From Eledone cirrhosa (lineage: Eukaryota), in the NCBI GenBank assembly GCA_964016885.1, contig OZ024740.1:110546001-110610000 (forward strand): DNA of 64,000 nt. Direction: 5' to 3'. The first letter of the stretch is position 1; each line of letters starts with the position of its first letter. Below, piece by piece: positions 42,724 to 54,723 of the stretch. The notes below the pieces were generated by a model. That model ran no database searches. It was not told the origin of the DNA and worked only from the letters and a program-made list of their open reading frames with translations. A program made the position numbers and the translations under genes.

Positions 42724-43481
42724 CGGACTGGTTCATGTACAGGTCATTTTTCGACCTCACTCGATCTTGTGCTAGCTGGCAGATGGCAATATATTTTGCC
42801 GTTCCTGGATTTTTAGCCCTAGGAAAGGAAAATGCTTCTCTGATGAACTTTACTTTTCCATTAGAAATCCTATGGATTTCTAATGTTTTGTAAAGGGAAA
42901 CCGATCGGTAAGACCAACTGAGAGTAGGTAAATATTCAAATTATATTTTTTAATTTATTTAAAATATTGTTTAATTTTTGCTTGTTCTGCTTATCTCAAT
43001 ATTATAGTTATGGTATGTCAAATTAATACCATTGAACAACCCTGTATCATAGACAACCTATATATTTCCAGGGGTACTTAGTACCCGTGGGCATATTAAC
43101 TTCTTTTAATATACTCCGTTATGTAGAGAACAAATCTGTTGTTCTATTTAGCTGCTATTTTTAGTAGTGAAGTAGACAACACGTCTATGTTTACTTCCGC
43201 TTTTGCTACGGACTGGTTCATGTACAGGTCATTTTTCGACCTCACTCGATCTTGTGCTAGCTGGCAGATGGCAATATATTTTGCCGTTCCTGGGACTTTA
43301 GCCCTAGGAAAGGAAAATGCTTCTCTGATGAACTTTATTTTTCCATTAGAAATCCTATGGATTTCTAATGTTTTGTAAAGGGTAACCGATCGGTAAGGGC
43401 TACTGAGAGTAGGTAAATTTTTAAATTATATTTTTTAATTTATTTAAAAAATTGTTTAATTTTTGCTTGTTCTGCTTATCT

Positions 43482-43485
<4 letters not shown>
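42722..43485 (+). mobile_element. Retrozyme-like partial tandem (485-bp monomer, ~1.6 copies, two HHRs) between TA runs
   Basis: tacggactggttcatgtac at 42722 and 43207; CTGATGA at 42840 and 43325. Confidence 0.88.
42833..42916 (+). ncRNA. Type I hammerhead ribozyme motif (second copy at ~43318-43400 has GAAA changed to GTAA)
   Basis: CTGATGA ACTTTAC..CATTAGAAATCC TAT GGATTTCTAATG..GTAAAGG GAAA CCGATCGG TA AG. Confidence 0.75.
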
Positions 43486-51636: not shown

Positions 51637-52159
51637 ATTTTCAACATGTCCAGACTGTACCACTGGAGTAGTAACACATGCTCACACAATAGCTAATAAG
51701 ATAACGACCGGTGGACACCTTGATTATTCTGGGTTGAGGAATCCACAAAAGGGACTCCTACATTATACCCCATAGATTTAACTCTGATGTAAATATCATA
51801 GACTACTTGAAATTCCAATAGGATCCTTATCCAGAAATATCCGGGAGCCCAGCTCCACAGCTAGTAGTGTGGTTTTAGGACTATAACTGTGGGAAAGCAA
51901 GCTTGTGTGAATCGGTCCGTATTTTTCTATACGCTCCAATTCAATCCGAAACATAATGCATCTCATAACTGCAGAGATAGTTAAACATATAGCGAAGATC
52001 ACACCTTGATTTATTATTCTGTGTTTTACCTACTCTTCCAGCAAGCCGCACTAACGCATTTAGGTAATTTTGACGAATTTCCTAGTTTAGGATCATATAT
52101 TAAAACTCTCATTCCTAATTTCGTGTCCTATATTCACCGATTATTTTGCTCCCGTCAAA

Positions 52160-52312
52160 GGCAGTGGATTGGTAACATCGGTAGGGAGTTTGACGCCATG
52201 CTTTGGAGCAAAGAGTAACGGCCCTTTATGATCTGAGTTCAAATCCCACCTTGGTTAACTTTGCCTTTCATCCTTACGGGGTCGATTAAATAAAACATCA
52301 GTAATACACTGG
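52160..52312 (+). mobile_element. SINE copy
   Basis: gcagtggattggtaac..gagttcaaatcccacc..ttgcctttcatccttacggggtcgat. Confidence 0.8.
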
Positions 52313-52325
52313 ACCTGAACAGCAG

Positions 52326-52934
52326 TCTTTCCATTGGAAATTCTCTGAATTTCCAATCTTTTGATTAGTGAAACCGTCGGTAATGGCAATAGAACAGGTG
52401 AATATTTAAATCGTTTTTTAATTTATTTAAAAGATTGTTTGATGATTACTTGTTCCGCTCATTTTTATAGTTCTGGTATCTCAAATTAGTACCATCGAAC
52501 CACAACTTTTATAAACACCATGCATATTTCTGTAGGTACTTAGTGCCTGTTGGAATATCCATACCCTTTTATATTTATTCTCCTATATGTAGAGAACAAA
52601 ACGTTGTATCGCGCTGCTATTTTTAGCGGCATGATCAATAAGTTTATAATATCCCGTTTTTACTTATGGCCTATTTTTGTGTGTGGGTCACTTTAACGGC
52701 ATGACCACATGCAACGGGCAGGAAGCGATATATTCTCTTACTGTGAAGATTTATACCCTTATAGTACGGAAATAGCTGTCTTTAAATATCTAATTCTTTC
52801 CATTGGAAATTCTCTGATTTTCCAATCTTTTGATTAGTGAAACCGTCGGTAATGGCAATAGAACAGGTGAATATTTAAATCGTTTTTTAATTTATTTAAA
52901 AGATTGTTTGATGATTTCTTGTTCCGCTCATTTA
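52326..52934 (+). mobile_element. Retrozyme-like partial tandem (469-bp period), diverged relative of the 40 kb and 42.7 kb elements; HHR 5' core decayed
   Basis: tctttccattggaaattctctg at 52326 and 52795; GAAA CCGTCGG TA ATGGC retained. Confidence 0.8.
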
Positions 52935-54723
52935 TATATATATACACACTACTGAAATCAGGTCGTTCTTAGCTGCGATGATTGACTTTTTACAGGATCT
53001 TGAACACAAACAACTTTGAAGTATTGAATGACTCATCAGCACCAAATTTGCTACCTCCCCCTTTACCTCTGCCATTACTTTCGTTTTGTCGTCATACTTG
53101 AAGTGATGAGGCGAATGAATGCTGGCTCCGAGTTTTAATCCACAATATAGACAAATGTATTTTATCGTGGCTCTAACATTGCAGGTCCTCTAATTTATGA
53201 GTCAAAGTCGTAGTCATAAAAGCGAAATCTCCCGAGAAAAACGAAAGTAGCCGATCGTCAGACAGAATTAAGGAAATCTGATTTTAATTGATCTTTCTAT
53301 TGCTAATACCTCATACTGGCAGAACGAACAAGGTGAAATAAAATATTTCGCTAAAGAATACAACATACCAATAATAGTACTCACTATCTTAGAAACGTGA
53401 AATACCTACCTTCAAATCTTCCTTAAATTCCGCTATATCGTCTTAAATCATACGTCGGGAATGTACAGTTTCAAAACCTTATGTGGCTCTTTAGCCTATC
53501 TCCTGTTGATTTTAGCTGCTCTAGATTTACTTTATGTTGTATTTCTTTATTAAAATAAAAACCACAATTTTGAGCTGATCATTGAAACCGTTTTAGATGA
53601 GATTCAAAACCAAAAACCGTATTGGGTGGGTAAGAAATATGTGAGCTAAATTCATGTTTTCTTGTATGTAATTTTGTCTATAATATATTACGTGGCTCCG
53701 GCTGTCTAACATATTATTGTTTTAAACTAAAAATGACTCTTTAAACTGAAAACATCAGAAAAAAAAACAAGTATCTTGGCTATAATGAGAATGTATTCTG
53801 AGATAATGTTTCTGAAAACGTGAAATGTTCAGGGTTAGAGAACCTGATACAATGATCATCATTCATAGATGTATAGAGATCTGTTATATGGGTATCAATG
53901 GTCTTATGAAAGTTTCTTTTTTATTTGGTAGGCCTGGAGGAAAGGACTGTCTTCGTTGATTTCATATGTCCCTCGAGACCGGGCAGATGGATGTTCTTAA
54001 TGTTCCGCTTAAGCTGTTGCAAGTCAACTTCTTTTGGAAAGACAAGAACGAAGAAAGTGTTTCAGAGGGCCGACATTCTTGGCAGAAGCGATTAAGCTGG
54101 AATATGGGTAGTGTGAGTTCTATTAGGTTGGGTAGAATATTGTTAATGAGAGGAGAGGTTGGTGATTCAGGAGTCCCTGAATGAAGATGGCATAAGATTG
54201 GCAAGTTCTGAGTAACAGATCATTGTGGAAATATAATAAGAGAGGGAGAGGGAGAGAGGGAGAGAGAGATGGAGATAGGGAGAGAGAGGGAGACAGAGAG
54301 AGAGAGAGAGGGAGAGAGAGAGAGAAAGAGCGAGAGAGAAAAGACTATATAGATATGGGGAAGGGGTGGTTCAAACAATGTTGTTGTTGCTGTTATTGTT
54401 TAACACTTCTAATACAATCCGTCTGAAAGTGACCCCGTTCTACGATACAAAACTATTTATTTTGAAGTTCTTACATTTATCTAAACACCTCTCATCCTAA
54501 CTTTACGTAAGTATCTTTAAGTTATACTTCACACACCAGCTTAATAATGATAAAGTTAGTGATATTACTAAACCTTTCTAAATTTTTGAAAATCGGTGGC
54601 AGTGTTTTTCTTTAGAAATTGGTAAAAAAAATTGTTAAGCCCTTAATCTGTCGGTATTGATCGGAACTGTTATCAAAATCATTCTGGTTATGTACGTATT
54701 GTCTGTTGGCTATTGTAATATAG

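Follow-up and report, generated by a model that had tools for sequence, protein, structure and literature searches.

A dispersed non-coding repeat of Eledone cirrhosa keeps a type I hammerhead fold and was probably copied into (TA)n by a Penelope-type enzyme

The element at positions 52326 to about 52934 of the window (the whole 64,000-nucleotide stretch of Eledone cirrhosa DNA that we analysed) is a decayed copy of an abundant, dispersed and non-coding 460–525-nt repeat with a type I hammerhead fold. The stems keep the hammerhead RNA structure by selection, which acts in the source lineages of the family, and it is likely that the family was copied into (TA)n by a Neptune-type Penelope enzyme, as a non-LTR retrozyme with a hammerhead fold.

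RESULTS

The three copies of the window belong to one abundant repeat family

The window holds three copies of the repeat, A, B and C. Subfamily A is represented by a head-to-head insertion (39961..40890; locus L061) with an intact CTGATGA core at 40698, and subfamily B by a plus-strand insertion of 1.6 units between (TA)n tracts (42723..43483; locus L031), its sequence having cores at 42840 and 43325, the second with GGTAA instead of GAAA. The subfamily C copy is the element described above. All motifs that the original prediction had quoted from the three copies were found in place, and its periods of 524, 485 and 469 were confirmed for A, B and C, respectively. The three monomers are homologous, as it had supposed: identity is 78% for A-B, 73% for A-C and 73% for B-C, and their alignments score 219–407, as compared to a shuffled maximum of at most 19.

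The genome searched comprises 3.0 Gb. Similarity searches with the A, B and C copies returned about 1,800–2,500 candidates each, the best 40 of which were scored, and a 29-nt motif common to the three has 699 + 696 = 1,395 exact matches (reversed control: 0). The 133 distinct monomers that we took from 160 family loci and locus L152 group into 6 clusters when the identity threshold is 80%, and into 28 when it is 92.5%. The simple three-way split implied by calling the copy at 52.8 kb the third subfamily therefore does not hold. The longest ATG-initiated ORF among the family monomers is 63 aa, and circular folds of the monomers have z-scores of -3.9 to -6.6. The copies are dispersed, reach up to 3.3 units in length and lie in (TA)n, within which target duplications are unreadable; 41 of the 94 arms picked by motif are longer than one unit. 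No second family with the same ribozyme was seen among the 6 loose-end matches listed of 61.

Other repeats were also noted in the window. More hammerhead-like motifs, of other repeat families, lie at 13758-13820 (+), 10004 (-), 46475 (-)/46706 (+), 40965 (-) and 14200 (-), and several of them recur in other loci. A very abundant 205-bp SINE-like repeat, which we take to resemble octopus tRNA-derived SINEs, is found at 33981-34411, 56841-57393 and 52150-52315. The twelve letters between this last copy and the 5' end of the subfamily C element (52314-52325) are loosely like the core of another subfamily, and are probably filler or chance. Finally, positions 2084-7985 are taken up by a tandem array of 281 copies of a 21-bp unit, the strand skew of which is extreme.

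The subfamily C copy of the window is a damaged product

The subfamily C insertion (52326..~52934, plus strand) is 5'-truncated, comprises 1.3 units with a period of 469 and has no coding capacity, the longest ATG-initiated ORF in the subfamily C monomer being 42 aa. It opens with a first, truncated hammerhead (52326..52387, plus strand; assigned by sequence and alignment A1), which comprises inner stem II, the 3' arm of outer stem II, GAAA, stem III, GTA and the 3' arm of stem I, with a predicted cut after 52382. End mapping then places a 'tail' of about 110 nt (52465..52570, plus strand) between two fixed 3' ends, site 1 near 52464 and site 2 near 52570; a family-wide motif lies inside it at 52475-52503. 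The alignment fold predicts two body hairpins at 52578..52630 (plus strand), namely TTCTC/GAGAA, which includes tatgtagagaa, and GCTGCTA/TAGCGGC, with 91% and 95% of the cells paired.

A conserved GGAAA (52768..52772, plus strand) is the predicted pseudoknot partner of TTTCC in the internal loop of stem II (52797-52801). The complete type I hammerhead fold, with a damaged core, was assigned by alignment and covariation to 52775..52856 (plus strand). It has stem I GCTGT/ATGGC, a T.T at the base of stem II, outer stem II CTAATT/GATTAG, inner stem II at 52802-52826 followed by GAAA, and stem III ACCGTCGGT, and its cut is predicted after 52851. The 3' end of the insertion is at site 1 (CTTGTTCCGCTCATTT), where the sequence runs into the (TA)n target (52918..52945, plus strand), and this junction recurs in a unique-depth contig.

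The core of the complete hammerhead reads CTTTAAATA (52780-52788), and the window copy itself departs from the hammerhead consensus CUGANGA...GAAA...NUH. This damage is private to the window copy: 39 of the 46 other subfamily C ribozymes with native upstream sequence keep CTGAAGA, which lies between stem I GCTGT and AC(A/G)GC. ATGGC occurs in both units of the window copy and is absent from 58 other subfamily C ribozymes. The earlier statement that CTGATGA is destroyed in this copy was therefore right about the damage and wrong about the motif, as the core of the subfamily is CTGAAGA. The window copy is a catalytically damaged, dead product, and selection applies to the source lineages.

Compensatory changes in the family support a hammerhead RNA structure

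The ribozyme alignment has 85 members, namely the window copy A and the 84 distinct rows left from 88 clusters (3% divergence) once short and duplicate sequences had been dropped. The core is intact in 71 of the 85, the cut sites are all GTH (GTA, GTT or GTC), and the three stems, with II and III closed, have covariation support. In the 28-pair structure 89.8% of the cells are paired, as compared to 81.9% after shuffling and 28–46% when the structure is slid, and there are 242 double-change cells against 107 in the shuffled alignments, although two of the five measures do not clearly exceed the shuffles (24/500 for the number of pairs having a double change and 102/500 for that of further pair types). 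Stem I, which the original prediction had not included, covaries too, with four pair types at one position. The GTAAAG quoted for outer stem II of subfamily A is present but not typical of the subfamily: its G-T is a variant of the window copy, and most A copies have GCA...

Since counts of this kind are inflated by kinship, events on 25 pairs were mapped onto a tree of the body sequence outside the ribozyme. Its internal branches carry eight double changes that preserve pairing, whereas the null, our own R-scape-like simulation of 1000 runs, has a mean of 0.69 and a maximum of 4, and was exceeded in 1000/1000; the significance asked of the covariation is thereby borne out. The nine catalytic bases have a ratio of 1 internal to 15 terminal changes, as compared to 581:772 in the body (p=0.0035). 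The keep/break ratios of internal and terminal branches do not differ significantly (p=0.11). Furthermore, the stems contain 163 G-U cells and 32 A-C cells, an excess that points to RNA pairing on this strand and argues against DNA palindrome repair. The RNA structure is thus selected, as had been claimed; the three window copies are not in themselves the direct evidence that they were said to be, since the whole family and a tree-aware null were needed.

By its core and stems the family is a type I hammerhead, for which we predict self-cleavage. RNAalifold found stems II and III, not stem I. For the isolated motif, the hammerhead fold is 2–14 kcal/mol less favourable than the MFE structure in the copies listed, and there is an alternative fold in which the core and stem III are paired. 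An all-pairs covariation scan gave 178 candidates, mostly single-event noise, with helix pairs making up four of the top 7 (three hammerhead, one body). The body helices have few double changes (0–2 each), and it was a fold of this very alignment that supplied them; the body structure therefore rests on wobble bias and fold z-scores. Stem III variants whose third position is a purine were sought by pattern, with 0 matches. The Rfam hammerhead models gave no match, even in short windows, nor were they among the best 150 of 272 matches, those listed being microsatellite-driven miRNA only; the miss is likely due to the long stem II. The subfamily series also amounts to natural mutagenesis of a hammerhead that escapes Rfam and has a long stem II.

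A pseudoknot is predicted between stem I and stem II

Stem II is about 50 nt long with a pyrimidine internal loop, and positions 10.1–11.1 at its opening are unpaired in 66 of 84 copies. The TTTCC of this loop is complementary to GGAAA just 5' of stem I, and both words are present in 165 of 194 copies. With 1 internal and 16 terminal changes, these ten bases are constrained like the catalytic core. Covariation between the two words is nearly absent: in one subfamily there is one double change in 41 copies, next to three single changes. On the strength of complementarity, conservation and this one double change we predict that GGAAA/UUUCC forms a stem I–stem II pseudoknot.

Insertions end at two fixed sites

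Among the 224 arms in the 160 loci, 130 end at site 1, 76 at site 2 and 18 elsewhere, frequencies that are biased because the loci were chosen by similarity (90) or by tail motif (70). Site 1 lies 80–115 nt behind the cut and site 2 about 110 nt further; the 3' ends are thus away from the ribozyme cut, and the 5' ends are scattered round the unit. Nearly all fixed ends (196/206) run into TA, and the two sites carry ATAT or TATA within the unit itself. On the 5' side, TA is present in 77 of 97 non-inverted arms.

There are 60 head-to-head pairs, 47 with both ends classed and 13 with one end unclassed. All but one of the classed pairs (46/47) combine site 1 with site 2, and within the motif-picked subset the ends are mixed in 24 of 25 pairs. 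The A copy of the window obeys this rule, its inverted arm stopping at site 2 and its forward arm at site 1. The exception (L205:1161-2127) is the only inverted insertion that has site 2 twice, and one of its ends is without a TA tract.

A second hammerhead repeat family was noticed at L161:2300-3500 and L211–L230 (2398 candidates), with a unit of about 690 nt as judged by eye. Its copies are 96–99% alike, it has two ends about 123 nt apart, and 5 of 6 loci with both strands have mixed ends. Two hairpins distantly resembling those of the retrozyme body are present in it as well (ATCTC/GAGAT; GCTGC/GCAGC).

Neptune-type elements of the same genome have the same two-end pattern

The genome contains 10,596 GIY-YIG candidates, and the ORFs that we read from GIY-YIG loci have RT and GIY-YIG domains and the CX4CxxC linker, which marks the Neptune and Nematis clades of Penelope-type elements (PLEs) as described in PMC8557442. 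At least six Neptune-type families have a minimal hammerhead a short way before their end in (TA)n. Three of them have two alternative ends about 40–65 nt apart and mixed ends in loci with both strands, adjacency not being confirmed for each; family N1 was left out of this two-end scoring, as a TA run opens its tail. Comparison of the monomer with the UTRs of about 7 PLE families revealed no homology in 50 of the 10,596 candidate loci.

According to Frangieh et al. 2024 (PMC11167929), the PLE protein nicks and extends both strands in vitro, and its RT starts at two internal RNA sites flanking the genomic tail; the tail is often at one end only in the account of Craig et al. 2021 (PMC8557442). 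The footprint of PLE insertion, that is, a tail between fixed ends, an inverted 5' copy and a partial tandem, is present in the repeat family. The matching two-end pattern, taken together with this biochemistry, suggests that the retrozyme works like a PLE terminus without the ORF.

A Neptune-type ORF in L152 was considered as the parent of the adjoining subfamily C copy and rejected because its own 3' end and TA tract lie between the two. The retrozyme copy there is a separate insertion into the terminal TA tract of the PLE, and the sole co-located copy. The Neptune-type terminal hammerheads (3' UTRs of L151, L152, L157, L167 and L170) have TTGAnAA for CTGAnGA, with the 3-8 pair changed on both sides, and stem III ACCGGT, which the retrozyme stem III resembles with 3–4 bases added. 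In Neptune N2 and N3, family D and E-type retrozymes, a word ACCTC(A) followed by pyrimidines precedes the outer end, and this word may be a shared priming signal.

The template was either a circle or an uncut multimer

Arms longer than one unit imply that the RT passes the cut site, and hence that the template would be a circle or an uncut multimer. Private variants common to both units of an insertion number 41, as compared to 9 in the control (65 arms), a count inflated by undersampled lineages (L049 gives 7 and L096 is counted twice). Divergence within an element is 0.028, against 0.027 when the element is compared with its closest other locus. 5' ends joined to TA are about 2.4 times as frequent immediately behind the cut as immediately in front of it (30 and 13, respectively, on the minus strand, at equal pattern sensitivity). 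In the hazard table this excess is weak (14/118 versus about 7 expected, in one of 16 bins), and the enrichment is confounded by TA microhomology.

DISCUSSION

The observations can be combined into the following model. A source copy longer than one unit would be transcribed, and the hammerhead, probably docked by the GGAAA/UUUCC pseudoknot, would cut out a monomer, which could then be circularised. With the structured tail as its binding site, a Penelope-type RT-endonuclease would nick both strands of a TA tract, and cDNA would be primed at the two internal sites flanking the tail, via ATAT/TATA microhomology. One cDNA would yield a simple truncated copy and both a head-to-head copy with one end of each kind; an RT passing the junction would leave a copy longer than one unit. 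Compensatory changes would have built up in the source lineages because only working folds spread, and inserted copies would decay.

If the repeat were satellite-like, covariation might also come about with no selection on RNA, by gene conversion or by palindrome repair at the level of DNA. Stem III and inner stem II are indeed short quasi-palindromes, and the subfamilies are related, their cells not being independent events. However, stem I (with a span of about 80 nt) and outer stem II covary as well, the catalytic bases outside the helices show conservation on internal branches, the observed count exceeds every run of the tree-aware null, G-U cells far outnumber A-C cells, and the copies are dispersed and at most 3.3 units long; we consider this origin of the covariation extremely unlikely. 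Somewhat less remote, though still improbable, is a SINE-like passenger of a LINE (RTE, L1 or Tx1 type), the inversions of which would be due to twin priming. LINEs likewise show 5' truncation, inversion and microsatellite targeting, with which the features of the family are compatible, and the 50 GIY-YIG loci yielded no PLE with a homologous terminus. Such a passenger does not account for arms with overlapping sequence, each starting at one of two fixed internal sites, for the mixed ends of all classed pairs but one, for the same two-end pattern in the Neptune-type elements of this genome or for 3' ends that are not at the ribozyme cut, all of which favour copying by a Neptune-type Penelope enzyme.

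As to what this enzyme copied, we regard the case for a circular template as evenly balanced. Penelope-type mobilisation could instead have proceeded from an uncut linear multimer, with the hammerhead acting at another stage of the cycle, or only when aided by protein, and the circle unnecessary, a course of events that we think possible and rather doubtful. It agrees with the in vitro system described in PMC11167929, in which hammerhead mutants left insertion unaffected and cleavage needed protein, with 5' ends occurring all round the unit and with the likeness of intra- and inter-locus divergence. The excess of shared private variants, on the other hand, agrees with repeated passes over a single template, 5' ends are modestly enriched just past the cut site, and known retrozymes accumulate as circles according to PMC7229834. 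Taking the circle together with the other parts of the model, we tentatively propose, with a little less than even confidence, a circular-RNA parasite with a structured tail of 110 nt by which it recruits a PLE dimer of Neptune type, the two fixed sites being where this dimer primes both nicked strands, and with a ribozyme that is a new hammerhead variant docked by a pseudoknot onto the internal loop of the 50-nt stem II. Were this proposal true, the rule of one end of each kind would be a genomic read-out of PLEs moving retrozymes in trans, and a defined cis element would be available for testing.

Judged by its sequence, the family is a new member of the non-LTR retrozymes, having non-coding units of a few hundred bases, each with one type I hammerhead, in tandem and as dispersed copies. 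We found no published description of it in a search for octopus and cephalopod hammerheads or retrozymes, although Repbase, subscription papers and supplements may hold one. The metazoan non-LTR retrozymes, as described by Cervera and de la Pena 2020 (PMC7229834) and by Li, Clavereau and Pollet 2026, are likewise non-coding and low in GC; their units measure a few hundred bases, contain a single type I hammerhead each and form partial tandems, with a high degree of self-pairing, and PLEs occur alongside them. For axolotl HHR_Amex2, the base of stem II is described as having a U.U pair, which corresponds to the T.T seen here. The present family differs from these descriptions in its units (460–525 nt as compared to about 170–400 in PMC7229834), in its stem II of about 50 nt with an internal pyrimidine loop and in arrays that reach 3.3 units only, and its two fixed ends, 110-nt tail and strict end pairing set it apart from the retrozyme descriptions that we compared. 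According to Perreault et al. 2011 (PMC3088659), about 40% of hammerheads, across the three types, are predicted to have a Watson–Crick contact that links the side of stem I with that of stem II. The predicted GGAAA/UUUCC pairing would be a contact of the same kind, with the difference, relative to the hammerheads described there, that the partner is a stem II internal loop with an 11-bp hairpin beyond it.

Like the Neptune and Nematis PLEs of PMC8557442 and PMC11167929, the family has partial tandems, an inverted 5'-truncated copy, a tail at one end, AT-rich or (TA)n targets, a hammerhead shortly before the end and two internal RT start sites flanking the tail. Unlike these elements it has no ORF, its tail measures about 110 nt as compared to 30–40 in the accounts of those papers and about 40–65 in the PLEs of this genome, and its hammerhead is full-size with a 3-bp stem III, whereas PLEs are described as carrying the minimal form. 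The enzyme that moves animal retrozymes is treated as a hypothesis in PMC7229834, and the link to PLEs is drawn by Li, Clavereau and Pollet 2026 (10.64898/2026.07.22.740005) from co-occurrence and pLTR homology; 21/57 of the Xenopus-family matches reported there are to PLEs, whereas no pLTR homologue was found here in the 50 GIY-YIG loci compared. In the present family, it is the insertion scars themselves that match the Penelope mechanism, and they point to two specific priming sites and to a tail, all of which the published in vitro PLE assay could put to the test. To the known systems our analysis thus adds a tree-aware covariation test, an end rule that has an in-genome PLE control and a testable pseudoknot.
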